A DNA stretch of 64,000 bases from Vulcanimicrobiota bacterium (GTDB lineage Bacteria; Vulcanimicrobiota; Xenobia; Xenobiales; QWHO01). The stretch covers positions 14,947-78,946 of the forward strand of contig JBDHVW010000023.1 in the NCBI GenBank assembly GCA_039809865.1, in the 5' to 3' direction. Shown here in pieces: positions 3,293 to 60,368 of this stretch; the first letter of the stretch is position 1; each line of letters opens with the position of its first letter. The notes under the pieces were generated by a model. That model ran no database searches, was not told where the DNA came from, and saw nothing but the letters and a program-made list of their open reading frames with translations. A program made the position numbers and the translations under genes.

Positions 3293-3300
3293 TCGGGGCG

Positions 3301-6433: not shown

Positions 6434-6960
6434 GGGCGGGCCACCTCGGCCTGCAGCGTGACCACGCCGGCCCCTTCCTGCACCGAAAGGCGCACTTGCA
6501 TGAGGCCCGGCTCCAGCCAGGCGGCCGAGAGCCCGACCGACTCGGCCACCACCGAGCGACGCCCCTCGATCTCGCGCACCAGGTTGCGGTCCGGATCCAC
6601 GTAGAATCGCACGTTGTCCAGCGCCACGGCCGAAGGGTCGAAGCCCGTCCCGGAGGCCGGCAACCATTCCTGATTGGGCCGAGGGCGCAGCAGCTCGATC
6701 CGGCTGGCCGGAGCGCCCGTGGGCTCGAGGATCTGGTGAGCCTCCTGCAGCTCGAGACACAGCTGCGAGAGAGCGCGAGTCGATTCCAGGCGGCGATCCT
6801 GGCGCGAGTTGAACCGGAGAAACTCGGAGTAGCTCGCCAGCAGATTGGCGAGCAGGGCCATGACCAGCCCGAACAGCAGCATCGTAACGAGCGCCTCGGG
6901 GATCGTGAAGGCTCTACGGCCCAAGATCCACCACCGTCGTGCCAGAGAAGGTCCGGCCAA
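6430..6960 (-). CDS. Type IV pilin-like minor pseudopilin (GspI/J- or PilV/W-like)
   Basis: N-terminus ...RRAFTIPEALVTMLLFGLVMALLANLL is a prepilin-type N-terminal methylation-like segment. Overlaps both neighbours. Confidence 0.65.
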   Translation of the reverse strand: MAGPSLARRWWILGRRAFTIPEALVTMLLFGLVMALLANLLASYSEFLRFNSRQDRRLESTRALSQLCLELQEAHQILEPTGAPASRIELLRPRPNQEWLPASGTGFDPSAVALDNVRFYVDPDRNLVREIEGRRSVVAESVGLSAAWLEPGLMQVRLSVQEGAGVVTLQAEVARP

Positions 6961-7699: not shown

Positions 7700-8012
7700 T
7701 GCTTCAGGTTAGCAGGCGGAATACCGAAAATCAAGCTGTTTATGGCATTGAATATCTCGCTTGGCCCCTGGTGGTAATCGACCCGGAAACCCCACCGGGT
7801 ACAGTCAGAATCGAGGCGCCGACTCACGCATAGCTCGTCCTGGCGGTTTTCCGAAATCCCGATTGAGGGCAGCTCAAGCAAGAAATCACACAATTCGAAC
7901 AGGGTTTCGAAATTGCTCGAGAAAGGCTTTTCCACGGCCCTCGGTGGACATGAAGGCCCCCGAAAGGGAGCGGACGAAGGAACTTCCACTTTCTCCCGGA
8001 GGACTACGTCTC

Positions 8013-11000: not shown

Positions 11001-12743
11001 GCCGAGCGCAATCGCATGTTCCGGCTGCCGCGCTCGACCTGGGACGACTATGACAAGTCGCTCATCAGTGCGGGCGGCGGCGTGCATCCCCGCCACGCCA
11101 AGAGCATCAAGCTCACTCCCGAGGTGAAGAAGGCCCTGCGGATCGAGGCCGACGCCCTCAGCGGCGACGATCTCGTCAAGGCAATCTTGCGCTCCCCGGT
11201 GGACCTGCTCTGGAACGGCGGCATCGGCACCTACGTGAAGGCCACTTCGGAGCGCAACGCCGAGGTGGGCGACTCCAACAACGACCAGGTGCGCATCGAC
11301 GCCCACGAGCTGCAGTGCCGCGTCATCGGCGAAGGCGGCAACAACGGCCTCACCCAACTGGCCCGCATCGAATACGCGCGGCTGGGCGGGCGCATCAATA
11401 CCGACGCCATCGATAACTCGGCCGGCGTGGACATGTCCGACCACGAGGTCAACATCAAGATCCTGTTCCAGCCTTTGCTGCAGAGCGGCAAGCTTACGCT
11501 CGAGGAGCGCAACACCATCCTGGGCGAGATGACCGACGAGGTCAACAAGCTGGTGCTCTACGACAATTTCCGCCAGTCGATGGCGATCAGTATGGCGGAA
11601 CGACGGTCCAAAGAGGACATCGGGCTGTTCAGCACCCTGATCGACTACCTCGAATGGCGCGGCCCCCTCAAGCGCGAGGTGGAGTTCCTGCCCGACCAGA
11701 AGGCTATTCTGGAGCGCCAGCGCAACGGCGAGGGCCTCACCCGGCCGGAGCTGGCCATCGTGCTGGCCTACAGCAAGATGGGCCTGTATCGGCGCCTGCT
11801 GGACACCGACTTCCCCGAGGAGCCGCACTTCCAGCACTACCTCACCAACTACTTCCCTACGCTGATGCAGCAGCGTTTCCCCGAGGAGATCAAATCGCAC
11901 CAGCTGCGGCGCGAGATCATCGCCACCCAGTTCACCAACAAGGTGGTGGACATTCTGGGCATCACGTTCGTGCACCGCACCATCCGGAACACCGGGGCCA
12001 CGCCCGTGGCGGTGGTGCGCTCGGCGCTGATGGCGCTGGAGATCCTCAACTTCGACTCCCTGCTCGAGGACATCTTCGCGCTGGACAACAAGGTGGCCGC
12101 CGCGGCCCAGTACGACGCGCTCTGGAGCGCGCTGGAGACGGTGGAGAGCGTGGTCAACCAGATGCTGCTCATCCACGGCGTCACCGGCTCTGTCAGCGGG
12201 TTCGTGCAGGCCTATCGCGATCCGCTGATGGACATCCGCAACCGTTTCCCCGACCTCTTGCCGGCCAACGAGCAAGAGCTGTTCAACGCGCGTCGGCGCG
12301 AGTTCGAGACGCATGGTTTCCCGGCCGAGCTCGCGCGGCAGATCGCCACACTGGCTTACTTGCCCAGCGGCCTGGGCGTGGTGGACGCCAGCCGCAAGGC
12401 CCAGGTCGGCATCGAGAAGGCGGCCCAGCACTATTACGCGCTGGGTGACCGCCTGGCGCTCGGGTGGCTGCGCATCCGCCTGGCGCGGCTGGCCGGCACC
12501 GACAAATGGGAGACGATCGCGCTCGAGGGTCTCATCATGGACCTCCGCCAACTGCAGCTCCGGCTCTCGTTGGGCAGCTTGCGGCACGGCAGCTCGCCCC
12601 AGGCCTTCCTGGACAGCCTGGGCGAGCGGGTGCGCCGCTACGAGATGGCTCTGACGGAGATCCGTGAGAGCCAGAAGCTCTCGCTTGCCTCCTGCGGCGT
12701 GCTGGCCCGGCAGCTCTCGCAAATGGCCCAGACCCTGGCATGA
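8013..12743 (+). CDS. gdh: NAD-specific glutamate dehydrogenase, large (about 180 kDa) bacterial type
   Basis: 1576 aa from ATG 8013 ([15 protein letters not shown]). Contains the signature region [38 protein letters not shown] characteristic of the Bac_GDH family. The track ORF start at 7761 is an upstream in-frame extension without a start context. Confidence 0.9.
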   Translation: [1576 protein letters not shown]

Positions 12744-23796: not shown

Positions 23797-25590
23797 ATGA
23801 GCATAAGTTTGCAGTTCTGGCGCACGAAACGCGGTTTCGGGCTGGTGGTCGTGCTGGGCATCGCAGCCGTGCTGGCCATCTTCACCGGTGCTATCGGTGC
23901 CAACGCCGCCATGAACCTCCGCAGCGTCACGCACGAGAGCCAGACGGACCAGGCCCACTACGCGGCTTTCACGGGCATCCAGCTCTCGATGGCCTGTATC
24001 AAGGAGCCTCCGCCCGGACGTGAGGATTGGCTCGAAGTCGACCCCAGCATCGTCGTCCAACTGAGTGAGAACACCAGCTGCACCGCCCGCACCTATCACA
24101 ACCTCGAAGGCCTGGCGGGAGCGGTAGCGGTGGCCGACGATGGGACCAAAATCCCGGTCAACAACTTCTACATCGTGGCCGTTGGCACGGTGGCTCAGGC
24201 TGTCAGCGCCAGCAGCTCCTCGATGGGCGCCCTGGTGGCCCCCCTGTTCCCGCCCATCGACCACGCCGTCTTCGGTAATTCCGAGGTCCACGTGGCCGGG
24301 CTGGTCGACCACTTCAACTCCAACGACATGGGTACTGCTCCCGACCCGGACTGCACCGTGGCCCTGGCCCCGGTGGGAACCAACTCGATCAACCTCAGCG
24401 ATTTCGATCTCGGCCCGACCACGCACGTGGATGGGGACCTGCACCTGGGTGAAGGGGCGTCGGCCGCCGACGTCAGCGCTCTGGCCGGCGTCGCCGCCTC
24501 CGACATGGCGGGCGGCGGCGGCTCAACCACCACGGGTGGAATGACGAGCACGACGACCACCACGACGGGAACGACCACCGGGGCAACCACGGGAACCACG
24601 ACCGGAGCCACCACGGGCGCCGCAGCGTCCTCGGTCGACACCGGCACGATCTCGACGGGCACCGCCAGCAGCCTCCCGGCCCAGAAGCAGATGCCCAACC
24701 TCGCGGCGCCGACCGCCGCCAGCACCATCGTTCCCAGCACGGGCGGATTCAGCCTCAACGGCAGCCGCAGCTACGTCATCAACGGCAACCTGGTCCTGAA
24801 CAACGCAACCATCACGGTGAACGGCACCGGCAACGCGCTGCTGTTCGTCAACGGCAACATCAGCATCACCGACAGCCCCAACCTGACGGTTCCGATGCGC
24901 CCCGAGCGCCTCAAGATTTACTGCCTCGATCCCAACGGCACGTTCACCATGGTGAACAGCAAGGGCTACTTCGTGGTGGCCGGCAACGGGAACTTCAACG
25001 TCAACGTGGGTACCGATGCCGAGCTGTTCGGCGCCATCCTGGCCGATAAGGTCACTGTGAATGCGGGCAGCGCCGTGCACTTCGACGTGGCGCTGGCCGA
25101 CCCGACTCGCGTGGGCTCGGTCAGCGATTTCTTCATCACGGGTATCACCGCCGCCGGTGGTGAGGCCGTGCCGCACGCCGCCCTGATCGCTCCGGGAGCG
25201 CTGGCCGGAGGGGCTGGAACGGCCGCGGCCGCGACCGGAACGACCGGGACGACCGGGACGACCGGAACGACCACCGGGGCGGCCACGACCGGAACCGCCA
25301 CGACCGGAACCGCCACGACCGGAACCGCCACGACGGGAACGACGACCGGGGGCACCGGAATGACCGCCGGCGGGACCACCGGAATGACCTCTACCGCCGG
25401 GACCACCGGAACCACCGGGACCGCGACCACGGGAACGACCACAGGAACGGCCACCACCGGAACCGCGACGACCGGAACCGCCACCACCGGAACCGCCACC
25501 ACCGGCACGGCCACCACCGGAACCACCAGCACTTGCGGCTGCGGCTGCGGCTGTGGCGGCGGGAGCATGGCGATGGACATGGCCCTCTAG
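23797..25590 (+). CDS. Large pilin-like (GspK/PilX-type leader) secreted protein with Thr/Gly-rich repeats and C-terminal (Cys-Gly)4 tail
   Basis: ATG 23797 with GGAGGAGGGG 6 nt upstream. N-terminus MSISLQFWRTKRG|FGLVVVLGIAAVLAIF has a basic leader ending in Gly plus a hydrophobic helix and no Glu+5, as in GspK. Long TTTGATTG / TGTATTG runs. Ends ...TTSTCGCGCGCGGGSMAMDMAL. Confidence 0.6.
   Translation: MSISLQFWRTKRGFGLVVVLGIAAVLAIFTGAIGANAAMNLRSVTHESQTDQAHYAAFTGIQLSMACIKEPPPGREDWLEVDPSIVVQLSENTSCTARTYHNLEGLAGAVAVADDGTKIPVNNFYIVAVGTVAQAVSASSSSMGALVAPLFPPIDHAVFGNSEVHVAGLVDHFNSNDMGTAPDPDCTVALAPVGTNSINLSDFDLGPTTHVDGDLHLGEGASAADVSALAGVAASDMAGGGGSTTTGGMTSTTTTTTGTTTGATTGTTTGATTGAAASSVDTGTISTGTASSLPAQKQMPNLAAPTAASTIVPSTGGFSLNGSRSYVINGNLVLNNATITVNGTGNALLFVNGNISITDSPNLTVPMRPERLKIYCLDPNGTFTMVNSKGYFVVAGNGNFNVNVGTDAELFGAILADKVTVNAGSAVHFDVALADPTRVGSVSDFFITGITAAGGEAVPHAALIAPGALAGGAGTAAAATGTTGTTGTTGTTTGAATTGTATTGTATTGTATTGTTTGGTGMTAGGTTGMTSTAGTTGTTGTATTGTTTGTATTGTATTGTATTGTATTGTATTGTTSTCGCGCGCGGGSMAMDMAL
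25201..25562. repeat. Intragenic microsatellite-like tandem repeats: degenerate 15-bp ACCGGAACCGCCACG units and (TGCGGC)4
   Basis: Direct reading of 25260..25560. Encodes (TGTAT)n and CGCGCGCG. Confidence 0.7.
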
Positions 25591-25600
25591 GAGCCTGGTG

Positions 25601-26053
25601 ATGCGGCGCCGCGGACATTCGCTCCTCGAAGCGGTCGTGGCGGCCTCGGTTTTCGCCATCGTAGCGGTGGCCCTCACGGGCATCTGGTTCATGTACTACT
25701 CCGCCCTGTCCAAGTCGGCCAATACCCTGGCTGCCAATCACCTGGCCCGTACCGTGGTGGAGGGAGCCATCGCCAACGGCTACGACTGGATCGTCACCCA
25801 GCAGCAGCAGACCGACCTGGTCTACACGCTGGAGCGGCGCGTCCGCAGCCGCAGGGCCAACAGTGAATATCACGTCGATTGGGTGGCTATCACCAATGCC
25901 GGCCAGTCGATCACCACCATGCTCCCGGCCGAGGTCTGCCGCATCTCGGTTACGGTGAAGTGGAAAGACGATACCGGCAACCAGATCGATGCCGGTCCCT
26001 ACAATCACCAGGTGGTTTACTCCACCTGGATCTACCGGAGCGCGTCGCAGTGA
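25601..26053 (+). CDS. Type IV pilin-like minor pseudopilin (GspH/I-like, 150 aa)
   Basis: MRRRGHSLLEAVVAASVFAIVAVAL matches G|HSLLE with Glu at +5. Starts 10 nt after the previous stop. Confidence 0.7.
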   Translation: MRRRGHSLLEAVVAASVFAIVAVALTGIWFMYYSALSKSANTLAANHLARTVVEGAIANGYDWIVTQQQQTDLVYTLERRVRSRRANSEYHVDWVAITNAGQSITTMLPAEVCRISVTVKWKDDTGNQIDAGPYNHQVVYSTWIYRSASQ

Positions 26054-26745
26054 GGAAGCGCAGCCTCGGTATGTCCCTGATGGAGATCCTGGTCGCCATC
26101 TTCGTGATGGGGATCGTCGTCTGGGGGGCCTACGAGATCTTCCGGGAAGGCATTCAATACTTCAAGACCAATCAGAGGGCCAGCGACGCCCAGCGACACT
26201 GCCTCAACCTGCTGAGCCAGGTCTGCCTGCAGGTCACCAATGCCAAAGAGGAGCTCGTCAAGAACTACGACGCTCCCGGCGTGGTCCCCGGAGTCTGCTT
26301 CGCCTCGCCCCTGGCCGACGACGGCAAGGTGCACTACGACCTGACCAACGGCAATCAGGTCTTCTGGCAGAAGATCGTCTGCTATTACCTGGATACGACT
26401 TCCGGTAAGGTCTACCGCAAAATCGAGAAGATTCCCGACACGGTGGCGGGCGAGACGGGCAACAGCGACATGGGTCAGGTGGAGGCGCTGCTCGCCACCT
26501 CCACCACGAACTACTTCCAATCGCTCAACACCAACGCGGTCACCCTGATCGCCGAGGACATCGTGGCCTTCAAAGTCAGCGCCTACGATCCCGCGACCAG
26601 CGGGGTCGTGCCGGGGGCCGGGCCCAGCGCCGGCGCGGGCGGTGGACGCGCGTTCGATATCGTGGTGGAAGCCGGGAACCCCACGGACATGGGGCCCAAC
26701 GGCTACTACCTCAAGCTCGATTCCCGCGTCGCTCCCCGAGGCTGA
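26050..26745 (+). CDS. Type IV pilin-like minor pseudopilin (GspJ/PilW-like, 231 aa)
   Basis: GTG 26050 overlaps the TGA 26051..26053. VRKRSLG|MSLMEILVAIFVMGIVV. Confidence 0.7.
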   Translation: MRKRSLGMSLMEILVAIFVMGIVVWGAYEIFREGIQYFKTNQRASDAQRHCLNLLSQVCLQVTNAKEELVKNYDAPGVVPGVCFASPLADDGKVHYDLTNGNQVFWQKIVCYYLDTTSGKVYRKIEKIPDTVAGETGNSDMGQVEALLATSTTNYFQSLNTNAVTLIAEDIVAFKVSAYDPATSGVVPGAGPSAGAGGGRAFDIVVEAGNPTDMGPNGYYLKLDSRVAPRG

Positions 26746-31588: not shown

Positions 31589-32602
31589 CTTGCCCTCGCG
31601 TCTGGCCAGGTCTTCCGCTTTCTTCTTGAGGGCGTCCTCGCGGTAACGCAGCATCTCCTCGCGGACGTGCCGCTCGCGGTCCATCCTGGTCACGGCGCCG
31701 GCCTGCTCTTTCTCGGACAGGGCGACCTCTTGCTCGCGCGCGTCCAGAGCCTTGTCGCGCTTGTCCATGTCCAGCCATTCCTGGCCCTGGTGGCCGCGAT
31801 ACCTGGCCTCGGAGACGCCTTTGCGGATCAGGTCCACGATGGTCATCCCGCCGACGAAGCAGATGGCGCCCAGCACCACCCCGCCCACCAGCGCGCCGGC
31901 GGCGGCGCCGCCCACCAGGGTGGGGAAGTTGAGGTTGGCCGCGATCAGGCCCTGGGCCAGACCCGCGCCCGTCATGATGCCCGCGCCCATGGCCGCGCCC
32001 CCGGCCACGCCACTCAGGGTGGCCATGCCGCCGATCACCATGCCCACGTTGCGCATCGGGCCGCTGCCCAGGGAAACATAGGGACGCTGCTCGTCCGGAT
32101 CCGGGGGCGCCGGTGGAGGCGTCGCGGCCGGGGCCCCCGCGCCGTTCTTCTCCAGCCAGTGAGCGCTGGCGCCCTTCAGCGCACCGACGGCCGCACCCGG
32201 CACGAAGGCCGGCTTGCCCGCGATCTCGCCCAGAGAGTTGCCGATGCGCCAGCCACCGGCGGCGCCGCAGACGCCGCCGAGCACCATGCCGGCCGCGCCG
32301 AAAGCGTTGATCGTATGGAGCCCGGTCGTCAGGAAGCTCCAGCCGCCGTGGCTCATGGCCGCGGCCACCGGTCCGGCGAAGCCGCCGCCCAGAATGCCGC
32401 CCGCCAGGGCTCCTCCGATGACGCCGCCGTAGAGTCCCAGCATCATCAGCGAGAATCCGCCGGCTCCCGCGGAAATGTTGGAGCTCTCTTCCATCCACTC
32501 GCGCCCGGTCTCGAGAGCGGCTTCTTTGACGTCCTGGCCCAGCGTGCGCTCGGCCCGGGGTGGGGTCTGCACCGGAGCGGTGCGGACGGCTTGCACGTTC
32601 AC
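31580..32602 (-). CDS. Glycine-zipper membrane protein with C-terminal Lys/Glu coiled-coil, paralog B
   Basis: Two GxxxG-rich hydrophobic blocks (HGGWSFLTTGL...), acidic linker, and C-terminal RDKALDAREQEVALSEKEQ coiled-coil. ATGA overlap with paralog A. Confidence 0.5.
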   Translation of the reverse strand: MNVQAVRTAPVQTPPRAERTLGQDVKEAALETGREWMEESSNISAGAGGFSLMMLGLYGGVIGGALAGGILGGGFAGPVAAAMSHGGWSFLTTGLHTINAFGAAGMVLGGVCGAAGGWRIGNSLGEIAGKPAFVPGAAVGALKGASAHWLEKNGAGAPAATPPPAPPDPDEQRPYVSLGSGPMRNVGMVIGGMATLSGVAGGAAMGAGIMTGAGLAQGLIAANLNFPTLVGGAAAGALVGGVVLGAICFVGGMTIVDLIRKGVSEARYRGHQGQEWLDMDKRDKALDAREQEVALSEKEQAGAVTRMDRERHVREEMLRYREDALKKKAEDLARREGKSA

Positions 32603-33660
32603 CGCGCACCTCCCAGCTTCTGCTCGCGCTCGGCCAGCTGTTTGGCCAGCGCGTCGAGCTCCGCCTGGCGCTTGTCCAGGGCCTGGTTCTTGAGCTTGTC
32701 GTCCTCGGCCGCTTTGCCGGCGTCGACCTTGACCTTGTCAGCGCGATCCTGCAGCGCTTTCTCGCGCTCGTTCTGTTTGGCCTCGCGCTCGTTGAGCTGC
32801 TTGGCGGTGGTTTTGTGGCCGGAGGTGAGCTTGCCGCCGGTCTTGTCCCAGATCGTCTGCGCGGCCTGCACCAGCTGCAATCCACCGCGCCCGCCGATGT
32901 AGGCCAGCGCTACCGCGCCTACCAGGCCGCCCACCAGAGCCGTGGCGGGCAGGGCTGACACGAAGCCGCCCCAGGTCAGCGAGCTGGACAGCGCCGTGTG
33001 GGCCAGGCTGCCGGCGGCGGCCAGCGTGGCGCCACCCACGAATCCGCCCACGCCGCCCGAGACCGCGGCAGCCCCGGCCACCATACGGGCGGCCGGCTCG
33101 AACTTGCCGTGGAACGTCGGACCGGATTTCTTGACCGCGGGTTTCTCGTCCTCGGGCTCGGCGCCCGGGACCTCGATCCCCGCCAGTCCTTTGGCTCCGC
33201 CCACCACGAAGCCGGCTCCGAAGCCGACCCCTTTGGCCAGCTTGCCGCCGACTTTCGTGCCCAGACTGAAAGCTCCCAGCGTACCGGTGGCGCCGCCCAG
33301 GATCATTCCCACTTTGGCAGCCGTGCCGGCCGTCGTCAGAGTGGTGGTCACGAATCCCCAGGCGCCGTGGCTGGCCAGCGAGGCGACCACGGGGCCGAGT
33401 CCGGCGCCCAGCATCGTGCCCACCACCGCGCCCCCGAAAACCATCCCGTAGGTGGCCACGGCGGTGAGCGCGATGCCGGTCATGCCCCCGATGCCGAGCT
33501 CGAGCTTGTCGCCCCAGTCGGCGCCCTGGCGGACACCCGATTGCACGGCCAGTTGCGTGCGGGTTGGCGGCGTCGTTTGAGCGCGCGGAGCTTGGAAAGC
33601 GGTGGTGGTGGCTAGCGATACTTGCACGGGCTGCAGGATATGCATGCGCCCTGAAAACAC
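32599..33660 (-). CDS. Glycine-zipper membrane protein with C-terminal Lys/Glu coiled-coil, paralog A
   Basis: Same architecture (HGAWGFVTTTL..., KQLNEREAKQNEREKALQDRADK...). The antisense ORF 31667..32902 is rejected. Confidence 0.5.
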   Translation of the reverse strand: MFSGRMHILQPVQVSLATTTAFQAPRAQTTPPTRTQLAVQSGVRQGADWGDKLELGIGGMTGIALTAVATYGMVFGGAVVGTMLGAGLGPVVASLASHGAWGFVTTTLTTAGTAAKVGMILGGATGTLGAFSLGTKVGGKLAKGVGFGAGFVVGGAKGLAGIEVPGAEPEDEKPAVKKSGPTFHGKFEPAARMVAGAAAVSGGVGGFVGGATLAAAGSLAHTALSSSLTWGGFVSALPATALVGGLVGAVALAYIGGRGGLQLVQAAQTIWDKTGGKLTSGHKTTAKQLNEREAKQNEREKALQDRADKVKVDAGKAAEDDKLKNQALDKRQAELDALAKQLAEREQKLGGAR

Positions 33661-37856: not shown

Positions 37857-39005
37857 ATGCAATTTGGCGACGCGATCAACAACGCTTTCGAGCGCACCAA
37901 GTATCTACTCTGGGAGCGCCGCTCCCGCACCCGCTGGCGCAACTTCGCGCTCCTGAGCTGGCTCTGCGGCTATTCGGGCGGAGGCGGCGGGGGAGGCGGC
38001 GGCGACTTCAGCTCGCTGTTCAAAGGCACCGGTGACAAGCGCGACACCTCGATGCGGTTGCTGCTCGGGTGCTCGCTGGCCTCGGCCCTGGGCGCGGGCG
38101 CGAGCGAGTTCGACGAGATCAAGCCCTACATCGGCCTGATCCTGGTGCTGTGCCTGGGCATCTTCGCCCTGAGCATGTTCGTGCTCTACGCCAGCAACTT
38201 CGCCCGCGTCATCCTGGTCGAGAACATCGTGCACGACCGCGACGCGATCGCCGAGCCCTGGTCCCGCCTTTCCGGCATGGGCTGGTCGGTGCTCTGGTGG
38301 GGCGTGGGCTATTTCTTTGTCAGCGCCGTCATCCTCGGCCTGCTGGTGGTCGCGCCGGGCGTCGGCATCGCCGTGATGGGCGAGCACGACCCGGGCATGT
38401 ACCTCCTCTATCTCCCGTTCTTCCTCTGGCTCTTCGCGGTCTTGCTGCCGCTGGGCTTCATCCAGGGCTACTTCCAGGAGATCGTCATCCCGCTGATGTA
38501 CCGGCAGAAGTGCTCCTCGACTGAAGCCTGGGCCATCTTCAAACCCCTCTTCAACGCCCAGAAGGGCAAGTGGATCGTCTACATGCTGCTCCACTTCTTC
38601 CTGGTCATGGCGGCCAGCATCGTGGCCAGCATGATTATGCTGATGGTGCTGCTGATGGTCGGCCTCGTGCTGGGCCTGCCGACGCTGGCCATGTTCGCCG
38701 TCAGCTCGACCGCCGGCATCGTGACCGCGGTGGTCACGGGCACGCTGTTCGTGATCGCCTGCTTCGTGTTCGGCTGCCTGCTGACGATGCCGGTGACCGT
38801 GCTGGGACGCAGCTTCTCGATGTATATCCTGCAGCAGGTCGCCCCCGAGTATGGCTTCCTGCCGCTGGGTGGCCGCCCCCTGAGCGTCGACCCGATCACC
38901 GGGATGGTGCAGGGCCCCGAAGCCGGAGTCGGGCTCAACCCGGCCGAGACGCAGCCGATGCCGACCGAATCCTCCGAGTGGAGCGACATGCCCCCCCATG
39001 GATAA
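37857..39005 (+). CDS. Polytopic membrane protein of unknown function with poly-Gly stretch
   Basis: 382 aa with multiple long hydrophobic segments and a GGGGGGGGG run. The antisense ORF 37905..39083 is rejected. Confidence 0.6.
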
Positions 39006-39372
39006 AGATTGGAAGACCTGTCTGACCCCCGAGCAGTATCGCATCTTGCGCGAGAAGGGCACCGAGCGCGCCTTCACCGGCAAGTATTACGCCCACAAAG
39101 AGGACGGCACTTACCTCTGCGCCGGATGCGGCCACGAGCTGTTCAGCTCCGACACCAAGTTCGACTCGGGCACGGGCTGGCCGAGCTTCTACCGGCCGGT
39201 CGACCCGAGTGCGGTTGGGGAGGAGCACGATGCCACCCATGGCATGGTGCGCACCGAGGTGGTCTGCAGCAAGTGCGGCGGCCATCTGGGCCACGTGTTC
39301 CCGGACGGGCCCAACCCCACCGGGTTGCGCTACTGCATCAACTCCGAGTCGCTGGACTTCAAGCCTGCATGA
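38998..39372 (+). CDS. msrB: Peptide-methionine (R)-S-oxide reductase
   Basis: SelR motifs CAGCGHELF...[12 protein letters not shown] with the zinc CxxC pairs. Confidence 0.9.
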
Positions 39373-39782
39373 TCGCATCCGTCCTGCGCGAGAAGGGCTT
39401 GCGGGCCACTCCCCAGCGCACGGTCATCCTCGAGCTGCTGCACGAGGTCGAGGGGCATCGCCACCAGACCGCGCAAGAGCTGTTCCAGCAGGCGCAGGAC
39501 CGTCTGCCGGGCCTGAATCTGGCCACCATCTACCGCACTCTGGAGGGCCTGTTCGAGGCGGGCCTGGTCGACCGTATGGACGCGGGCGAATCGGTTCGCT
39601 ACTCGCTGCGTGACCCGCACCACCTGCACGGTCACCTGCACTGCCGCCAGTGCGGCCATGGTCCCGAGATCGGCTCCGATGATCTGGGCTCGATCGCCCG
39701 CCTGATTGGCGAGCGGTACGGGTTCGTGCTGGACGTGAACCACCTGACCCTCAGCGGCGTTTGCCAGAGCTGCTCGACCTAG
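39369..39782 (+). CDS. Fur-family metalloregulator (Fur/Zur/PerR-like)
   Basis: ATGA overlap with msr[17 protein letters not shown]-binding helix and [14 protein letters not shown] metal site. Confidence 0.85.
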
Positions 39783-39786
39783 AGTT

Positions 39787-40680
39787 ATGGGCCATTTCGT
39801 CGCTGGAGAGTGGGTTTCGGGTTGGTACAAAGCGGACGCCAAAGGCCACTTCGTCCGCCCCGAGACGACCTTCCGCGGCACCGCCGAGCCCGTCAGCGGA
39901 CGCTACCACCTGTATGTCTCGCTGGCCTGTCCCTGGGCCCACCGCACGCTGATCGCGCGCAGCCTGCTGGGGCTGACGGAGCACATCGCGGTCACGGTGG
40001 TGGACTGGTTTCTCGACGACGACGGCTGGCGCTTCTTCGAAGGGCAGCCCGAGCCGCTGTTCGGCTTCACCCGTCTGCGTGAGCTCTACCGAAAGGCCGA
40101 CGAGCACTACACGGGCCGCGTCACCGTCCCGGTTCTGTGGGACAGAGAGCGCGGCACCATCGTGCAGAATGAGTCGCGCGAGATCCTGCGCCAGCTCTGC
40201 ACCGTATTCAAGCCGTTGAGCAACGGTCGCGAGCTCTCACCGCCACACCAGCGAGCCGAGATCGACTCCGTCCTGGACGACATTTACAACCCCATCAACA
40301 ACGGCGTTTATCGCTGCGGGTTCGCCCACACCCAGGTGGCCTACGACGAGGCGGTCAAAGCGCTCTACGCTGCGCTGGACAAGTACGAGGAGCGCCTGGC
40401 AAGTCGAACCTTCCTTTGCGGTGAGGAGCTCACCGAGGCCGACATCTGCCTCTTCACCACCCTGGTCCGCTTCGATCCGGTCTACAGCGTGCATTTCAAG
40501 TGCAGCCGCAAGCGCATTCAGGACTACCCGAACCTCCATCGCTTCACCAGGGCCGTTTACCATACGCCGGGCGTCACCGAGACGGTCGACTTCGACCATA
40601 TCCGCAACCACTACTACGTTTCTCACGATTTTATCAACCCGCGCCGCATCGTGGCGGCGATGCCGGACCTCCCCCTGTAA
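39787..40680 (+). CDS. yqjG: Glutathionyl-hydroquinone reductase (Xi-class GST, YqjG/ECM4 family)
   Basis: CPWAHR active-site motif. Length 297 aa. Confidence 0.85.
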   Translation: MGHFVAGEWVSGWYKADAKGHFVRPETTFRGTAEPVSGRYHLYVSLACPWAHRTLIARSLLGLTEHIAVTVVDWFLDDDGWRFFEGQPEPLFGFTRLRELYRKADEHYTGRVTVPVLWDRERGTIVQNESREILRQLCTVFKPLSNGRELSPPHQRAEIDSVLDDIYNPINNGVYRCGFAHTQVAYDEAVKALYAALDKYEERLASRTFLCGEELTEADICLFTTLVRFDPVYSVHFKCSRKRIQDYPNLHRFTRAVYHTPGVTETVDFDHIRNHYYVSHDFINPRRIVAAMPDLPL

Positions 40681-40714
40681 GAGGTTTTTCAGGGCGGTAC
40701 GGCATCCTGGTCCC

Positions 40715-42277
40715 GTGCAGGTCCGCGCGCTTCAAAAACTCTCTTGGCAATCGTCGCTCTCCCGGCCGACCGCGGCCCACGCCGCCACGCAGTCGAGCGA
40801 CCAGTTCGCACCCGGCCAGACCTCGGAATTGCCGCGCCTGCAGCTCGTTCCCGACAGCTTCCCCCCGGTGGAGACGGAAGGCTGGCGCCTGAGCGACCTG
40901 GCGGACGTGGGCGAGACGCTCAAGCAGGCGCGCGCGATCGTCAACCGCACCGCTCCGTTCAAGAGCTACGTCGTCAACGGCAACAGCGGCAGCGGGATGA
41001 CCACCCTGCTCAAAGCGATGGCGGGCGAATTCCATGCCCGGGGCACCCCCACGATCTTCGTCCAGGGCGCCTTCCTGAACGGCAGCGTCCGCGACCTGTT
41101 TGCGCGAGCCCGCGAGAAGAAGGCGGTCATCTTCGTGGACGGCCTGGACGGGCTGGCCCCAATTCGCAACAAGGATCATGCCAACCAGACGATGCTGCAG
41201 GTGGCGCAGGAGCTCGAGAAGGGAGACGTGCAGGTCATCGCGGGCACCAGCCGCACCGATATGGTGGATGCCGAGGTGATGACCCACCTCCCCGGCCTGC
41301 TGACCATCGCCCAGCCCCGCAACGAGATCGAGCGCAAGGGGATCATCGACGCGCTGGTCAAGCGCAAAGGACTCGAGGCCGATCCGGACGAGCTGACCGA
41401 GATGGCCGCCGCCACGCGCGGGAAGGGGCCTTCGGACCTGAATGCCATCCTGGATATCGCCGTGCAGCGAGCCGGGGGGAAGAAGCTCTCGGATGGCGAC
41501 CTGATGGAAGCCCGCCTGACGTTCCTCTCCGGTCCCCCCGAGCCGATCACGGTGGATGACCGGTTCTTTCGCATCTCGGTGGCTCACGAGATGGGCCACG
41601 TGGTGACGCGTCACGTTTTCCAGCAGATGGGCCGGGTGAGCACCAATCCGGACGAGCTGCCGCAAGCGATCGACCTGGTCAGCTTCCATCCCCGTCAGGG
41701 CGCGCAGGCCTTCGTCAACCTGATGTTCGGCGGCAACAATGGCAAAACGTTTGAGTACTACTTCGCCGAGATGTCTTCCGACTACGGCGGCCGCGCGGCC
41801 GAATACTTCTTCGGCAAGGGTCACCTCTCGGCGGGGCCCGGCGGCGACCTGAACCACGCCGAGGACCTGGCGTCCAAGGCGGACGCACTGGCCAAAGAGG
41901 CCGTCAGCAAAGGGATGGGGCAGACGTCGGGGGTCGACATCAACGCGCCCACGGCTCCCGCCGACGTTTCCAGGCTGAAGTCGACGGCCGAGAAGGTGGC
42001 TTACAGCGTGGTCGCCTTCTACGGGCCGTTCATCAAGGACTTTGCCAATGAGATGCTGGAGCGCCAGAAATCGGGCGCGACGCTGAACTTTACCGGCCGC
42101 GAGCTCACCAGCCGCCTCGTCGCCTGGGAGCGCGAGCGCGCGGTGCCTCTGGCGGTGCTGATGAACCAGGTGCGCGCGCTGCGCGACGAGCTGCGCCCGG
42201 CCGTGCCGCAGGTCTTCGATACCGAGTCCAACCGCTGGCTGCCCGCGTCGACCTTCGCCGAGAAGCTGGCCTTCTGA
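40715..42277 (+). CDS. Soluble FtsH-like protein: degenerate AAA+ domain fused to M41-type zinc metallopeptidase domain
   Basis: HEMGH zinc motif, FtsH-like VSFHPRQGAQAFVNLM and GGRAAEYFFG segments. Walker A reads GNSGSGMTT (Lys replaced by Met) and Walker B IFVDGLDG. No TM segment. The GTG 40715 start is a guess, since there is no ATG before the AAA region. Confidence 0.65.
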   Translation: MQVRALQKLSWQSSLSRPTAAHAATQSSDQFAPGQTSELPRLQLVPDSFPPVETEGWRLSDLADVGETLKQARAIVNRTAPFKSYVVNGNSGSGMTTLLKAMAGEFHARGTPTIFVQGAFLNGSVRDLFARAREKKAVIFVDGLDGLAPIRNKDHANQTMLQVAQELEKGDVQVIAGTSRTDMVDAEVMTHLPGLLTIAQPRNEIERKGIIDALVKRKGLEADPDELTEMAAATRGKGPSDLNAILDIAVQRAGGKKLSDGDLMEARLTFLSGPPEPITVDDRFFRISVAHEMGHVVTRHVFQQMGRVSTNPDELPQAIDLVSFHPRQGAQAFVNLMFGGNNGKTFEYYFAEMSSDYGGRAAEYFFGKGHLSAGPGGDLNHAEDLASKADALAKEAVSKGMGQTSGVDINAPTAPADVSRLKSTAEKVAYSVVAFYGPFIKDFANEMLERQKSGATLNFTGRELTSRLVAWERERAVPLAVLMNQVRALRDELRPAVPQVFDTESNRWLPASTFAEKLAF

Positions 42278-42892
42278 ATGCACGTCCGTCCTCTGGCCGC
42301 GTCGCCGCTGCGTGAGCGCGCCAAGAAGCTCTATGTCGAGATTCCTCCCGAGCCGGCCAAACCAGCCGAACTGGTGAAGCTAGAGCGTCAGCGGACGGCT
42401 TTGCGGGTCGGCGCCGCCGGAGTGGCCGCGCTGCATCTCGCCCCCGCCCTGCTGGGAAACCCCTGGGGAAGCTACACCGGAATGTTGGGCGCGACCGTGT
42501 CCAGCGTCTTTCTGGCCGCCGCCGCGGGTGCCGCGGTGGAGGATAAGCGACCCAAAGGGGACTGGCCGATCCCCGTGGCTCTGTTCGGCACCATGGCCGT
42601 CAGCGCGGCCCTGGGAGTGGCCGCCTGTTTCTATGGCAACCCCGTCCTCTGGACCCTGGACCTGGCCGTGGGAGTGACCGGGATGGTGCTGGGAACGCGT
42701 CTGCTCGAACAAGCCAGCGACTTTGACCACAGCCGCCTGCTGAGCGGCTACGAGAAGGCCCACGCCGCCTGGGAGCTGGACGCGGCCAAAGCTCTCGAGC
42801 CCCGTGGAGCGGCCGGCCCGCGCGAGATGGGCGAGCGGGACGGCGCGGTCATGATCGGCGGGGTGCGCCTCCCGAAGAAATCCAGTTCTTGA
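42278..42892 (+). CDS. Hypothetical membrane protein (204 aa)
   Basis: TGAATG stop-start junction with the previous gene, 3 hydrophobic segments. The 3' end overlaps the convergent GT2 gene by 44 nt, so the end is uncertain. Confidence 0.45.
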   Translation: MHVRPLAASPLRERAKKLYVEIPPEPAKPAELVKLERQRTALRVGAAGVAALHLAPALLGNPWGSYTGMLGATVSSVFLAAAAGAAVEDKRPKGDWPIPVALFGTMAVSAALGVAACFYGNPVLWTLDLAVGVTGMVLGTRLLEQASDFDHSRLLSGYEKAHAAWELDAAKALEPRGAAGPREMGERDGAVMIGGVRLPKKSSS

Positions 42893-53230: not shown

Positions 53231-53872
53231 ATGGTGGTTGATGACCACCTTCTCTTCCGGGAAGGCATCCGCAGCTTGCTGCGCGGTCATGAGGACGTCG
53301 AAGTGGTGGCCGAGGCCTCCGGGGGTCATCAGGCTCTGGAGCTGGCGCGCGAGGTCGCGCCCGATGTCATCCTGCTCGACCTCAACATGCCCGGCATGGA
53401 CGGCATCGAAGCCTGCGTTCGCTTCAAAGCCGAGCTCCCGACCACGAAGATCGTCATTCTCACCGTGTCCCGAGACCTGGCATCGATTTTCCAGGCCGTG
53501 AAGGCGGGCGCCAGTGGCTTCCTCACCAAGGATACCGGCTCCAACGAGCTGGTGGAGACCGTGCGCCGCGTCTTCCACGAGGGCAACCTGCTCGAGCCCA
53601 TGCTGGCCGACCGGCTGCTGGCCGAGTTCAGCCACCTCTCCGAGATGACCCGCCGCGAGGGTCTCGAGCCCGGCCTGTTCGCCACCCTGAGCCCGCGCGA
53701 GCAGGAGATTCTCAAGCTCGTCGCCGGCGGCAAGCCCAACAAGGTGATCGCCTCGGAGCTGGCCATCAGCGAGCACACCGTGCGCAATCACATCTCCAAC
53801 ATCTTCCAGAAGCTCCAGGTCAATAACCGCACCGAAGCCACCGTGCTGGCGATGAAGAAGGGCCTGATCTAA
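53231..53872 (+). CDS. NarL/FixJ-family response regulator (REC + LuxR-type HTH)
   Basis: MVVDDHLLFREG...ILLDLNMPGMDG...SPREQEILKLVAGGKPNKVIASELAISEHTVRNH. Alternative GTG start 53087 would add a 48-aa N-terminal extension. Confidence 0.85.
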   Translation: MVVDDHLLFREGIRSLLRGHEDVEVVAEASGGHQALELAREVAPDVILLDLNMPGMDGIEACVRFKAELPTTKIVILTVSRDLASIFQAVKAGASGFLTKDTGSNELVETVRRVFHEGNLLEPMLADRLLAEFSHLSEMTRREGLEPGLFATLSPREQEILKLVAGGKPNKVIASELAISEHTVRNHISNIFQKLQVNNRTEATVLAMKKGLI

Positions 53873-56550
53873 CTCCGGCGGCGCAGCCGCACGCTGCCCA
53901 CGCCCACGTGGGTGGGCGTCTCCTCGATGCCGCTGCTGGGCACGGCGCCCGGTAGCTCAATCTTGCCCAGCACGCGGTCCAGAGCAGCCGAGTGCTCCAG
54001 GCCCTGCGCCCGCAGCGCGACGATCTCTTCCAGGGCCTGGGCGACTTGCACGGGCTCGACTTCAAGCTCCTCTTCGAAGAGCTTCCCGGCTTTGAGTCGG
54101 TCCTGCACCTCGAAGAAGAGGCGGCCCGGCTCGTCCTGACCCATCAGGGCGCGGGTGGCCCGTAACCCCTGGACCGGTCCGAGCGCACCCACCGTCTCGC
54201 CCACCCAGCCGGTAGCGTTTTCGGCCCAGGCTTTCACACTCGAGGCCGGATTCTGCGGATCGGCCAGTTGGTAACAGTCATCCAGCCAGGTCAGGCGTTG
54301 CTCCTCGGAGTGGCCCTTCTCGGCCAGCCACGCGTCATTCTGGCTGCGGAGACGGGCTTTGAGGACGTGGCTCGTCTGCAGGGACTCGCCCTCGAGTTTC
54401 GAGTCGCGCCCTGGCAGCAGCTTGCGCATCGACTCCAGCAACTCGGGACGCCCCATGGAGCTACCCAGGCGAATCTCTCGCACGCCCTCGGGACCCAGCT
54501 GGTCCAGTGTCAGTCCGCGCGCCGCCTGGCGCTCGAAGCGTTGGGCTAACTCGGAGGCCAGGCGGTCGGCCGCATCGGGCTCGAGGGCGTTGAGGGCAGC
54601 GTGAGTCTGGCGATTGAACTCGCCGCTGCCTCGCAGGCCCGCTATCAGCCCGTAGGCCTTGATCGCTGCCTCCAGGCGGCCGTCCAGCGACGTAGACCGG
54701 TGGGCGAACTCCTGCCAGAGCTTGTCCGAGCGAGCGTTGCGCAGAGGCTCCACCAGTCCGTTCAGATGCTCGTGGTCGTTGGGGAGTGCCTTCTCGAGCA
54801 GCCCGTCCAGCTTCTCGCGCATCGCTTGCGAGAGGCTCATCGAGCCCAGCACCGCAAAGCGGGTGCGCCTGTCGGCCGGCAGGTCCACCAGCTTCCTGCA
54901 GTCGCGCAGGTCAGCCTCGATCGGCTCGAGCAGTCGCTGCTCCAGCGCTTTGTCAGGCTCGGGGGCGATCAGCTTGAAGAGATGCCTGGGCCAGGTTTCG
55001 TTTGCACACGTGAAGCGCTTGTCTGAGCCGGGAGCCCCCAGCAGGTGGTCCACCAGCGCGTCGGGCACCCGTTGGAGCTTGCCCTGGCGGTCGGCCATGA
55101 CCTGACCGTCGAGGAAGTGCGGGTCCCGCCCGACAAACGAAGACAAGGCCTGCAATCCGGGCTCGAACGAGCCGCTGTTCCACAACGCGATGCGGTCGGC
55201 AGCCTCGTCGGGACCGCTGTTGAGCCAGGTGATCATCCAGTCGCGCTCCAACTGGTCAGGCTCCCACCCGTGCTCTCCCGCCCGGCCCAGAATTCTCCAG
55301 ACGCCGCCGCTCGGAATGGCGTTGCTTTCCTCCACGCCCCGCATGACCATCTTGACGCTGGGCCCTACCAGCGCGGGCTTTTTCTCCCACATCATCTTCA
55401 ACACGTAGCCGGCGGCGTCAGCGGCGCCGGCATTGGTGTCGAACAGCAGCGGCGCCATCTGGCGCAACAGGCGCTCATCCACCACTTCCGGAAAGGCCGT
55501 GATCAGCTCGCGGTAGCAGGTGCTCACCGCGTCCGAGTTCCCGCCGCGTGAATCAGGGCCCAACCCGTTGAGCGCCTCCGACGCGGTGCCGAGCCGGCTC
55601 ATTTCCGCCACGTGCGGGCGCAGGGCTGCAGCCAGCCTGGGATTGTCCTTGCAACCCTCGAGGAGACCGGCCAGGAGTTTGATCGGTGCCGGCTCGTCGC
55701 AGCGCGACAGGACTTCTTGCACCAGCAACCCCGCCAGCTCGTTGCCGCCGGCCAGATTGCGGTTGAGCATCGTCACCAGCAGATCGGGCTTGTTCATGGA
55801 GACGATCGTGTCCGCCTCGCCGCCCGGACCGTGAACCTCTGCCAGACGGTTTCCGCGCACCGCCAGCTTGCCGAGACCCGTCAGGTCGAGGCTGCCCGGC
55901 TCGCGGCCGGTCACTTCGCACAATCCGTCACGCCACCAGCCATTGAGAACTTCAGTGGCGCGTGTGGCTAACTCGGCCGCAACGGTCCGGTTGGCATCTT
56001 CGACTTCAGCCGTGCGGGAATGCTGCTGCAAGTTGCGGACAGCCGACAACATCGTCCTGAGCGCTCGAGGAGTGGCTTTCCCCTCGGCTCGCACCGCGTC
56101 ATCGAGCGAGGCGAGCGCCGGGTCGACCTTTTGGGCTTCGACGGTGCGGAACTTGCCCACGAACATGGTGCTGAGATTCAGCTGGGCCGCGGAGCCGTTC
56201 AAATGGCCGTGCTGGGCCAGGTATTTTTCGCCCTGGGAAAGCCCCTCCAGGTAGCCGTACTTACGGCTGGCCATGGCGCGCAGGTGGGGATCGCTCGAGC
56301 CCAGCCAGGGAAGTGCGCTCTGGGGGGCCTGCTTGAACAGCTCGGGAAGTGCTATCTGGCGTTCGGCCACCCGGCGGGCGAGCATCCAATCGGCCCCGGG
56401 GTTGGCCGGACGCACGGGCTTCTCGGGGGCAGTCTCCTGGGATGAGGAAGCAAAGCTATCGCGCGGGTCCCTGGGGCCGGTCTCCTGGGCAGTGGCCGCG
56501 TTCGTCGGGCGAACGTAGCTGTCCAGACTCTGGGGGGAGTGGATCTTCAT
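53869..56550 (-). CDS. Large hypothetical protein (893 aa), mostly helical, no recognisable domain
   Basis: ATG 56550 (MKIHSPQSLDSYVRPT), 20 nt after the stop of the upstream YiiX-like gene. The upstream 200 codons of the track ORF are the off-frame shadow of that gene. Confidence 0.55.
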   Translation of the reverse strand: MKIHSPQSLDSYVRPTNAATAQETGPRDPRDSFASSSQETAPEKPVRPANPGADWMLARRVAERQIALPELFKQAPQSALPWLGSSDPHLRAMASRKYGYLEGLSQGEKYLAQHGHLNGSAAQLNLSTMFVGKFRTVEAQKVDPALASLDDAVRAEGKATPRALRTMLSAVRNLQQHSRTAEVEDANRTVAAELATRATEVLNGWWRDGLCEVTGREPGSLDLTGLGKLAVRGNRLAEVHGPGGEADTIVSMNKPDLLVTMLNRNLAGGNELAGLLVQEVLSRCDEPAPIKLLAGLLEGCKDNPRLAAALRPHVAEMSRLGTASEALNGLGPDSRGGNSDAVSTCYRELITAFPEVVDERLLRQMAPLLFDTNAGAADAAGYVLKMMWEKKPALVGPSVKMVMRGVEESNAIPSGGVWRILGRAGEHGWEPDQLERDWMITWLNSGPDEAADRIALWNSGSFEPGLQALSSFVGRDPHFLDGQVMADRQGKLQRVPDALVDHLLGAPGSDKRFTCANETWPRHLFKLIAPEPDKALEQRLLEPIEADLRDCRKLVDLPADRRTRFAVLGSMSLSQAMREKLDGLLEKALPNDHEHLNGLVEPLRNARSDKLWQEFAHRSTSLDGRLEAAIKAYGLIAGLRGSGEFNRQTHAALNALEPDAADRLASELAQRFERQAARGLTLDQLGPEGVREIRLGSSMGRPELLESMRKLLPGRDSKLEGESLQTSHVLKARLRSQNDAWLAEKGHSEEQRLTWLDDCYQLADPQNPASSVKAWAENATGWVGETVGALGPVQGLRATRALMGQDEPGRLFFEVQDRLKAGKLFEEELEVEPVQVAQALEEIVALRAQGLEHSAALDRVLGKIELPGAVPSSGIEETPTHVGVGSVRLRRRS

Positions 56551-59435: not shown

Positions 59436-60146
59436 TCAGTAGCCCGTCCCCTGTCCGCCCTCGACGATGGCGATGCTGGAGCTGGCGCCGATGCGAGTGG
59501 CACCGGCCGCGATCATCTCGTTGGCCGCTTTGGTGTCGCGCACGCCGCCCGAGGCCTTCACGCCCATCTCGGGACCGACGGTCTTGCGCATCAGGGCGAT
59601 GTCGGCGGCGGTGGCCCCGCCCCCGTTGAATCCGGTAGAGGTCTTCACGAAGTCCGCGCCGCCGGCTTTGCTCAGCTCGCAGGCGCGCACCTTCTCCTCG
59701 TCGCTCAGCAGGCTGGTCTCGATGATCACCTTCACGGTGTGGTCGCCGGCCGCGCCGACGACCGCTTCGATATCCTTCCGCACGGCCGCGTCATCTCGGT
59801 CCTTGAGCTTGCCGACGTTGATCACCATGTCGATCTCGTTGGCGCCGTCCGCGATGGCCTGGCGGGTCTCGGCGGCCTTGCCCTCGGGGGAGGTGGCGCC
59901 GTGCGGGAAGCCCACCACCGTGCACACCATCACCGGACTGTCCTTGAGCTCGGCGGCGGCCAGCTCGACGCGGCCAGGCTGCACGCAGACCGAGGCAAAC
60001 TGGTGCTCTCGGGCTTCAGCGCAGAGCTTCTTGATCTGGTCGGCCGTGGCATCGGGCTTGAGCAAGGTGTGGTCGATCATTCCGGCCAGAACGGCGCCGC
60101 TGATGCCCGTGCTGGCTGCAGTGGCGGCCAGAGCGGTCTGGAAGCT
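59436..60146 (-). CDS. deoC: Deoxyribose-phosphate aldolase
   Basis: [22 protein letters not shown] and FVKTSTGF motifs (Schiff-base Lys region). ATG 60149-region start preferred over track 60308. Confidence 0.85.
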
Positions 60147-60368
60147 CATCTGGGGGGCGTGCTTGAGCGTGATCGGAGGAGCCGTTCCGCCCTGCGGGGT
60201 GAACACTTCCGAGGGCTCCGCGGCCGGCTGGTGCTGCGAGCAGTTTCCGCATGCTTGCGCCGGGCGGTATTGCGCGCCGGACACCTGGCTGAACTGGCTT
60301 ACGATCATGGACGGGGACCCCTCTTTGTCAGTATGGGCCCAACTTACCGCGGTCCTCTGAAAGAAAGC

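Follow-up and report, generated by a model that had tools for sequence, protein, structure and literature searches.

We describe a gene for an FtsH-like protein of 520 residues in a 64,000-nucleotide stretch of the genome of a Vulcanimicrobiota bacterium (positions 14,947 to 78,946 of contig JBDHVW010000023.1; this whole stretch is referred to as the window, and coordinates without a locus label are positions within it). FtsH is regarded as a universal membrane-bound, ATP-driven protease. The window protein is a homolog of the whole cytosolic region of FtsH, comprising the AAA module and the M41 peptidase, and has lost both the membrane anchor and the residues that an AAA+ motor uses. We put the probability at roughly 0.55, judging from sequence comparisons, that it is a cytoplasmic, anchor-less FtsH paralog in which the AAA module is a pseudo-ATPase and the zinc-peptidase site is maintained and works independently of energy. 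Such a protein would be unable to hydrolyse ATP or to thread substrates, and would cleave peptides or already-unfolded proteins without an energy source. Its AAA-like module would be kept as a scaffold, for ring assembly, for gating, or perhaps for binding a ligand through the GxxGxG loop.

An FtsH-like protein without a membrane anchor

The gene and the parts of its product are as follows.

40715..42277, forward strand: coding sequence of the anchor-less FtsH-like protein, 520 residues, GTG start and TGA stop
40715..40777, forward strand: N-terminal leader MQVRALQKLSWQSSLSRPTAA, residues 1-21, conserved in orthologs
40778..40879, forward strand: predicted disordered linker, residues 22-55, replacing the FtsH transmembrane and periplasmic region
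40880..41314, forward strand: AAA-like large subdomain, residues 56-200, catalytically degenerate (Pfam AAA, E 2.8e-10)
41315..41539, forward strand: AAA lid-like helical subdomain and linker, residues 201-275 (model helices 204-272)
41540..42079, forward strand: M41-type zinc peptidase domain, residues 276-455 (FtsH_fam alignment, family profile)
42080..42274, forward strand: C-terminal helical extension, residues 456-520, with family-specific W471 and P495 (model helix 461-493)

Homology to FtsH spans both domains. The NCBIfam model FtsH_fam matches residues 86-388 of the product (E 1e-14), which is identical to database protein P0001, and a family profile built from 22 members matches the FtsH structure 7tdo over both domains (E 5.5e-47, positions 37-492); matches of the same profile to p97-type proteins are limited to the AAA part. 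The AlphaFold2 monomer model has a mean predicted local distance difference test (pLDDT) score of 77, with 85-93 in the alpha/beta core of the AAA-like subdomain. Its best Foldseek matches in the PDB are chains of FtsH, AFG3L2, YME1 and FtsHi, Ycf2-FtsHi structures included, and the top match is apo-FtsH (3kds_F of entry 3kds; E 1.8e-19, target-normalised TM-score 0.75, 460 columns). The Lon family is not represented among the Pfam, NCBIfam and PDB matches of the protein.

A first-pass annotation, made from the sequence alone, had described the protein as FtsH-like and membrane-less, and this description holds. No hydrophobic segment was found: the highest mean Kyte-Doolittle hydropathy over 19 residues is 0.73, compared with 2.1-3.1 in four canonical FtsH proteins. 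Residues 1-47 have pLDDT values below 50 and are predicted to be disordered, and in the model about 55 disordered residues stand where the membrane and periplasmic part of FtsH would be.

Loss of the ATPase and translocation elements

Motifs of the AAA-like subdomain were assigned from HMMER alignments to p97, which agree with MAFFT alignments to canonical FtsH.

40979..41005, forward strand: P-loop remnant GNSGSGMTT, residues 89-97, aligned with GPPGTGKTL; Lys replaced by Met95
41066..41086, forward strand: site of the deleted pore-1 loop, residues 118-124 (GAFLNGS); an 8-residue deletion takes out the MFVGVGA-type loop
41126..41152, forward strand: Walker B remnant VIFVDGLDG, residues 138-146, aligned with IIFIDEIDA; Glu replaced by Gly143
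41246..41296, forward strand: sensor-1 Asn replaced by Ser and RPGRFD by T-HLPG; SRH (second region of homology) arginine fingers both absent

At the ATPase positions that define FtsH the window protein thus reads GNSGSGMTT, VDGLDG, TSR and T-HLPG, and lacks the defining residues. The inter-subunit motif EMDGF, upstream of the sensor-1 and arginine-finger segment, has become ELEK. In the model, strand 113-117 and helix 125-135 are joined by just 7 residues, in agreement with deletion of the pore-1 loop. An AAA+ module with such losses would neither hydrolyse ATP nor pull a polypeptide through its pore. The remnants are the P-loop's glycine framework, a Thr that follows the site of the missing Lys, and the Asp of Walker B. 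Of the framework, G89, G92 and G94 show little or no variation in 22 family members, and Walker B reads DG in P0005 as well as in all four members of the clade formed by the window protein and its closest relatives (the window clade). Inactivation of the two Walker motifs had been proposed in the first-pass annotation. Alignment to the FtsH and p97 AAA cores bears this out at Met95 and Gly143 and adds the pore-1 loop, EMDGF, the sensor-1 Asn and both SRH arginines to the list of losses.

Three orthologs share these losses. The P-loop site is GNSGAGLST in P0002 ('bacterium CPR1', 67% identity), GNSGSGTST in P0003 (71% identity) and GFSGSGLTS in P0004 (Candidatus Xenobia, 62% identity), and all three have Gly at the position of the Walker B Glu. 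The Lys-to-Met change itself, whose conservation had been suggested as a check, is not conserved, the orthologs having Leu, Thr and Leu at this position. A canonical GPPGTGKT in orthologs would have pointed to a sequencing error or strain-specific decay; none of the three has it. Because orthologs with 62-71% identity share the ATPase losses, sequencing error can be ruled out.

Conservation of the peptidase site

The peptidase half is a different case.

41585..41599, forward strand: HEMGH zinc-binding and catalytic motif (H291, E292, H295), invariant
41801..41803, forward strand: Glu363, conserved structural Glu of M41 (GGRAAE), invariant
41846..41848, forward strand: Asp378, equivalent of the third zinc ligand (SAGPGGD), invariant

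The five residues H291, E292, H295, E363 and D378 do not vary among the 22 aligned members of the group with degenerate ATPase motifs, and they are present in 34 of 34 peptidase-bearing sequences in our motif table. In crystal structures of FtsH, the residue at the site of D378 is the third zinc ligand. The intact HEMGH motif and zinc ligands noted at first reading are therefore a property of the whole family. W471, in the C-terminal extension, is also invariant (22 of 22 aligned members). The earlier annotation had left the choice between a pseudo-ATPase fused to a protease and an ATP-independent adaptor. The dead ATPase motifs and the conserved peptidase site speak for the former, and the adaptor has gained no specific support; we favour catalysis because the HExxH motif, the Glu and the Asp are invariant across the family.

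A family with graded decay of the motor

When 1.84 billion representative proteins were searched with a profile, P0002 and P0020-P0035 scored 233-926 bits, against about 110-125 bits for canonical FtsH proteins. Together these define a family of about 20 clusters of anchor-less FtsH-like proteins, with members down to about 25% identical, and no hydrophobic segment was found in any member. A scan of metagenomes with a 9-sequence alignment as query and a scan of a genome collection contributed a few additional loci; the latter gave at least two further members among the matches listed, both from Vulcanimicrobiota. Collections of phages and plasmids gave canonical FtsH-type matches only. Where the source is named, the family loci come from metagenome-assembled genomes of Vulcanimicrobiota (Eremiobacterota). 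Database names for the proteins go no further than 'AAA family ATPase' or similar.

Decay of the motor is graded across the family. The window clade is the most degenerate, all of the ATPase and translocation elements listed above being gone. Elsewhere in the degenerate group, the pore loop, EMDGF and the arginine of RPG are missing from every member, and the sensor-1 Asn from most. The Walker A Lys is mostly kept in deeper members (about 33-38% identity); it is replaced by Thr in P0021 and P0029, and the entire P-loop is degenerate in P0028. Walker B in the intermediate members reads DE, DD, ED, DN, NN, EH or KD. A further group of anchor-less proteins (P0036, P0042, P0043, P0052, P0053, P0056, P0057 and P0074) has a canonical ATPase, with GxPGxGKT, the YVG pore loop, DE, EMDG[LI], the sensor-1 Asn and RPGRFD all retained. 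This group is low in G+C-type residues. An additional N-terminal region, about 300-550 residues long and without a match in Pfam, is present in most of the group. Its members share with the window protein the absence of a membrane segment, features of the peptidase domain and a leader-like motif at the N-terminus.

A neighbour-joining tree (100 bootstraps, rooted on four canonical FtsH proteins), to be taken as indicative given its few outgroups and simple distances, gives support of 100/100 to each of three groupings, namely all anchor-less proteins, the degenerate group, and the window clade. In this tree P0032, which still has GAPGTGKST, is the sister of the window clade, and the anchor-less proteins with canonical ATPase are the sister group of the degenerate group. 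The most economical reading of this pattern is stepwise. The membrane anchor would have been lost first, from an FtsH paralog; loss of the translocation machinery would have followed; and in the window clade the nucleotide chemistry would have been lost altogether.

Selection and a broken copy

Both domains are under purifying selection. Ratios of nonsynonymous to synonymous substitution rates (dN/dS) were estimated by the Nei-Gojobori method among the four orthologs; dS is high and the values are rough. They are lowest in the peptidase domain (0.10-0.30), followed by the lid (0.15-0.42) and the AAA-like large subdomain (0.26-0.55), and are close to neutral in the N-terminal linker (0.44-1.35). 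The dead ATPase module is thus constrained, albeit less so than the peptidase, which fits a structural role and not neutral decay.

One related locus carries a broken copy. At L018 (JAANMX010000029.1, 5951-7059), with about 90% DNA identity to the ortholog locus L004, the FtsH-like gene is frameshifted twice, once just after the start, and has lost the AAA core to a 440-nucleotide deletion. Neighbouring genes are intact, and the peptidase reading frame is open (database protein P0022). The remnant has a dN/dS of 0.10 relative to L004, which indicates that the lesions are recent and does not imply that the remnant functions.

Weighing the explanations

Several observations count against our reading of the protein as an ATP-independent peptidase of the cytoplasm. 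It scores 54.2 bits with NCBIfam TIGR01241, where the cutoff is 600, and 16.6 bits with Pfam M41 (PF01434), where the gathering score is 29.9; its relatives P0020, P0023 and P0032 exceed the latter, at 37-52 bits. The loop around D378 (residues 371-383) is modelled with low confidence. Nucleotide binding may still be possible in the family, to go by the deeper members that keep the Lys and, in some cases, DE. The gene is, judging from the lesions at L018, dispensable at least in that genome. The gene neighbourhood differs among orthologs, and a link to oxidative damage, discussed below, comes from one genome. Finally, the N-terminal leader may imply a localisation or a partner that would alter the picture.

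The leader deserves separate treatment. It is conserved in the orthologs (MQVSALSSLSWHSVARRPS, MQVRTVSSWSWPVSGLQRP), and the linker after it is not. Leaders of this type read roughly M-x-[IV]-x-Q-[VF]..S-[FLW]..R-P-[AT]-[QA]-A, followed by a linker rich in Pro, Ala, Ser and Gln. Pfam and NCBIfam contain no curated family that matches it. Similar leaders stand on four other proteins encoded in the window.

1-1722, reverse strand: S8 subtilase with fervidolysin-type prodomain and no Sec signal; N-terminus MISSVQQQVGLSSLSRPQSAAP
53869-56550, reverse strand: unknown protein of 893 residues; N-terminus MKIHSPQSLDSYVRPTNAA
56573-57448, reverse strand: C92 amidase with a similar leader
59436-60308, reverse strand: DeoC-like aldolase with a 70-residue N-terminal extension and a similar leader

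The leader also occurs at L004, on 2944-3834 and 5101-5970. In a leave-one-family-out test the four non-FtsH leaders scored above all 2383 shuffled N-termini, and the FtsH-like leader did less well: the window copy was equalled by 16 of 2383 shuffles and the L007 copy by 5 of 2383, with the L004 and L001 copies weaker. That the FtsH-like leader belongs with those of the subtilase, C92 and DeoC-type proteins is therefore suggestive only. More distant family members have an N-terminal M-x-[IV] together with an [IVL]-S-F element, to which low-G+C members add HLKANFxSFxG (HLKANF[LIV]xFxG in the canonical-ATPase anchor-less group) near the N-terminus. The leader may act in sorting or docking, or as a pro-peptide, and would in that case have a bearing on where the anchor-less protease operates. 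Links to the L27/Prp pro-peptide, to Tat or Sec signals and to microcompartment peptides were considered as background comparisons only and are unsupported.

The alternative that survives best builds on this leader, and we regard it as possible without thinking it likely. It holds that a lineage-specific leader addresses a set of proteins to a common destination, be it an unconventional export route, a compartment or a scaffold, and that the ATPase decayed because ATP or unfolding is unavailable or unneeded there. A Xenobia-type leader would then send the subtilase, the C92 amidase, the DeoC-like aldolase and the FtsH-derived peptidase to one destination outside the general cytoplasmic pool, and would replace the membrane helices in recruiting an energy-independent protease; this picture, too, we hold only tentatively. 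In its favour are the conservation of MQVRALQKLSWQSSLSRPTAA in four orthologs next to a near-neutral linker, and the very similar leaders on four other proteins, whose scores 0 of 2383 shuffles reach. Genes for DeoC, a DUF4406-like protein, the C92 amidase and the FtsH-like protein are moreover co-directional in L004 and L018, and other proteins of the window do have classical Sec signals. Against it, the resemblance of the FtsH-like leader to the others is only moderate, and the canonical-ATPase anchor-less relatives have leader-like N-termini as well, which argues against export as the cause of ATPase decay. Aldolases of the DeoC type normally reside in the cytoplasm. Genes for secretion or for a shell were not found linked to the leader loci, and the N-terminus lacks a curated family match.

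Less probable still is a mixed ring in which canonical FtsH, or some other AAA+ unfoldase, would do the ATP-driven unfolding while the window protein, as subunit or accessory factor, added protease sites or regulated its partner. The loss of the trans-acting arginine fingers and of EMDGF would cripple active neighbours in a mixed AAA+ ring, the protein has no membrane anchor with which to co-localise with FtsH, and its identity to canonical FtsH is no more than about 25%. Nor is any AAA+ gene a conserved neighbour. What makes the proposal worth considering is that FtsH paralogs do form hetero-hexamers, including with catalytically inactive FtsHi (PMC9020784), that Ycf2-FtsHi structures are among the fold matches, and that the dead AAA-like module is still under selection.

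We consider it improbable that the protein is a non-catalytic pseudoenzyme throughout, acting as an adaptor, substrate trap or regulator. Half of it already is a pseudoenzyme and its M41 match is weak, but invariance of H291, E292, H295, E363 and D378 in a family reaching down to about 25% identity, together with the lowest dN/dS of the protein, would be difficult to account for if the site were not catalytic. That the gene is decaying, or is an artefact of assembly or sequencing in one strain, is suggested by little besides the broken copy at L018 and can be dismissed almost entirely, given an intact reading frame with an in-frame G+C content at third codon positions (GC3) of 0.885, substitutions shared by three independent orthologs and graded over about 20 clusters, and dN/dS well below 1. 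Our preferred reading remains the anchor-less pseudo-ATPase with a maintained peptidase.

Gene start and upstream elements

A GTG start, at 40715 in the window, is common to the window gene and its three orthologs, and the first residues are similar (MQVRAL in the window, MQVSAL in L007, MQVRTV in L001 and MIIRPF in L004); in the three orthologs there is no other start between this GTG and the nearest in-frame upstream stop. The shared GTG and the similar first residues support 40715 as the correct start and so bear out the coordinates of the first-pass annotation. A longer open reading frame (ORF), from 40421, was rejected for its overlap with the upstream GST-like gene (39787-40680). P0002 (495 residues) and P0003 (452 residues) are probably annotated with N-termini that are too short. 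In-frame GTG codons lie upstream of the internal starts of P0002 and P0003, at L001 2099 and L007 5572, and the N-termini obtained from them match the window leader.

Upstream segments of the four genes were compared (window 40685-40714, L007 5542-5571, L001 2069-2098 and L004 5971-6000), and two elements stand out.

40685..40692, forward strand: TTTTTCAG motif, 23-30 nucleotides upstream of the GTG start
40703..40708, forward strand: CATCCT, a -10-like hexamer ending 7 nucleotides before the start codon

The first, (T/C)TTTTCAG, is found at -30 to -23, at equal distance from the start in 4 of 4 orthologs (window, L007, L001 and L004). TTTTCAG has 6 copies in the window, two of them just upstream of ORF 32599-33645 (reverse strand). 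At the hexamer site the orthologs have CATTCT, TATCCT and CAAACT (yAyyCT). A consensus promoter scan found no sigma-70 site and did not call the CATCCT hexamer either; no Shine-Dalgarno sequence was found upstream of the GTG in the four FtsH-like orthologs. The TTTTTCAG-type motif and yAyyCT may together form the promoter of a leaderless mRNA.

Gene neighbourhood

The FtsH-like gene is the fifth in a run of six and adjoins a small membrane-protein gene.

37857-42892, forward strand: co-directional run of six genes, with gaps of at most 35 bp
42278..42892, forward strand: gene for a 204-residue membrane protein, GC3 0.81, with 3-4 hydrophobic stretches

The order is DUF7544 membrane protein, MsrB, Fur/PerR-like regulator, GST-like protein (with a CPWA motif), FtsH-like protein and the 204-residue ORF, and a GT2 glycosyltransferase gene follows in convergent orientation. 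No terminator-like site was found between genes of the run, consensus-scan matches lying only inside genes. Oxidative-damage repair, or clearance of damaged proteins, would fit as the theme of the run; this context is not conserved. In L004 and L018 the FtsH-like gene follows genes for DeoC, a DUF4406-like protein and the C92 amidase in one co-directional cluster, in L007 it comes after a PilZ gene, and in L001 it lies between genes for an unknown protein of 168 residues and a C11 peptidase. A conserved operon partner was rejected on these grounds, as upstream and downstream genes differ between orthologs. The only recurring neighbours are GT2 and MOFRL, both convergent, which therefore cannot be co-transcribed with the FtsH-like gene.

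Translational coupling through TGAATG to a small membrane protein had been proposed for the downstream gene. The junction is as described, with TGA at 42275-42277 directly followed by ATG at 42278-42280, and the gene is real; the adjacency is not conserved, and a partnership does not follow from what is a local arrangement. The only homolog of the 204-residue protein, P0174 (44% identity over the full length), is encoded on another contig of the sample from which L007 derives, where it adjoins TPR and VanW genes, near MoxR, and has no FtsH-like neighbour. At the orthologous loci the 204-residue gene is absent, and in L004 and L007 the convergent GT2 gene lies within about 110 bp. As the adjacency is specific to the window genome, a dedicated membrane partner is unsupported. 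The idea that the protein is a split-off FtsH anchor was rejected because the gene is absent from orthologous loci and its homolog is encoded elsewhere.

Other observations in the window

Two features lie apart from the FtsH-like gene. Prepilin-type N-termini (RRGASLLETMLVVAILA, RGMSLSEVVLAIF, LGMSLMEILVAIF) occur on several ORFs, at 4032-7699 (reverse strand) and 25879-26745 (forward strand), which would point to a pseudopilin cluster, of type IV pilus or type II secretion-like kind, adjoining a 1660-residue ORF (7761-12743). A 204-residue ORF on the reverse strand (24966-25580) consists mostly of tandem PVVAV-type repeats (MSIAMLPPPQPQPQPQVLVVPVVAVPVVAVPVVAV...), and may encode a real repeat protein or be an opposite-strand artefact.

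Comparison with known systems

FtsH is anchored in the membrane by one or two N-terminal transmembrane helices (PMC9020784). The window protein shares with it the AAA large subdomain, the lid and the M41 peptidase, with HExxH and the downstream Asp and Glu (structures 3kds, 2ce7 and 7tdo). It differs in lacking transmembrane helices and a periplasmic domain, and in lacking the Walker A Lys, the Walker B Glu, the pore-1 loop, EMDGF, the sensor-1 Asn and the arginine fingers. Its own additions are 11 residues inserted behind the HExxH helix and a helical extension at the C-terminus that is longer than in FtsH. The two are about 25% identical, and the window protein falls far short of the NCBIfam cutoff. 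Since membrane anchoring, ATP-dependent translocation and the curated cutoffs all fail, we do not file the protein as an FtsH.

The chloroplast FtsHi proteins offer a mirror image. They have lost HExxH, keep an active ATPase, are membrane-bound and act in an import motor (PMC9020784). FtsHi and Ycf2 (structures 8xku and 8xks) resemble the window protein in being half-pseudoenzyme FtsH paralogs retained under selection; FtsHi has lost the protease, whereas the window protein has lost the ATPase and kept HEMGH. A review of FtsH lists FtsHi as the only catalytically inactive kind (PMC9020784), and chloroplast FtsHi were the only half-dead FtsH relatives in the literature that we searched. No precedent for an FtsH that is anchor-less, ATPase-dead or ATP-independent, or for a derivative that combines the first two properties, was found in the searchable literature, the coverage of which is incomplete. 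The family described here would have taken the opposite route to FtsHi, with anchor and motor lost and the protease kept.

The closest parallel in way of working comes from another protease family. LonC of Meiothermus taiwanensis is a Lon-like hexamer with an AAA-like domain that lacks canonical motifs and has no ATPase activity; nucleotide binding is retained, and degradation, for which LonC needs no ATP, is confined to unfolded substrates (PMC3391209). Both proteins fuse a protease domain to an AAA-like module devoid of ATPase motifs. LonC has a Ser-Lys dyad in place of the zinc HExxH of the window protein, and the two have no sequence relationship. By analogy, the window protein may be viewed as the FtsH counterpart of LonC. 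If this is correct, the FtsH family gains an ATP-independent offshoot, as the Lon family has in LonC.

The family is narrowly distributed and known from uncultured bacteria, and its alignments make a well-supported and clear case of a motor decaying towards a scaffold in an AAA+ protease. The analysis also points to a candidate sorting signal, in a phylum of which hardly any members have been cultured. Canonical, partly decayed and fully decayed motors within one clade amount to a natural experiment, which bears on what the AAA ring gives an AAA+ protease beyond ATP hydrolysis and on how motors become scaffolds.

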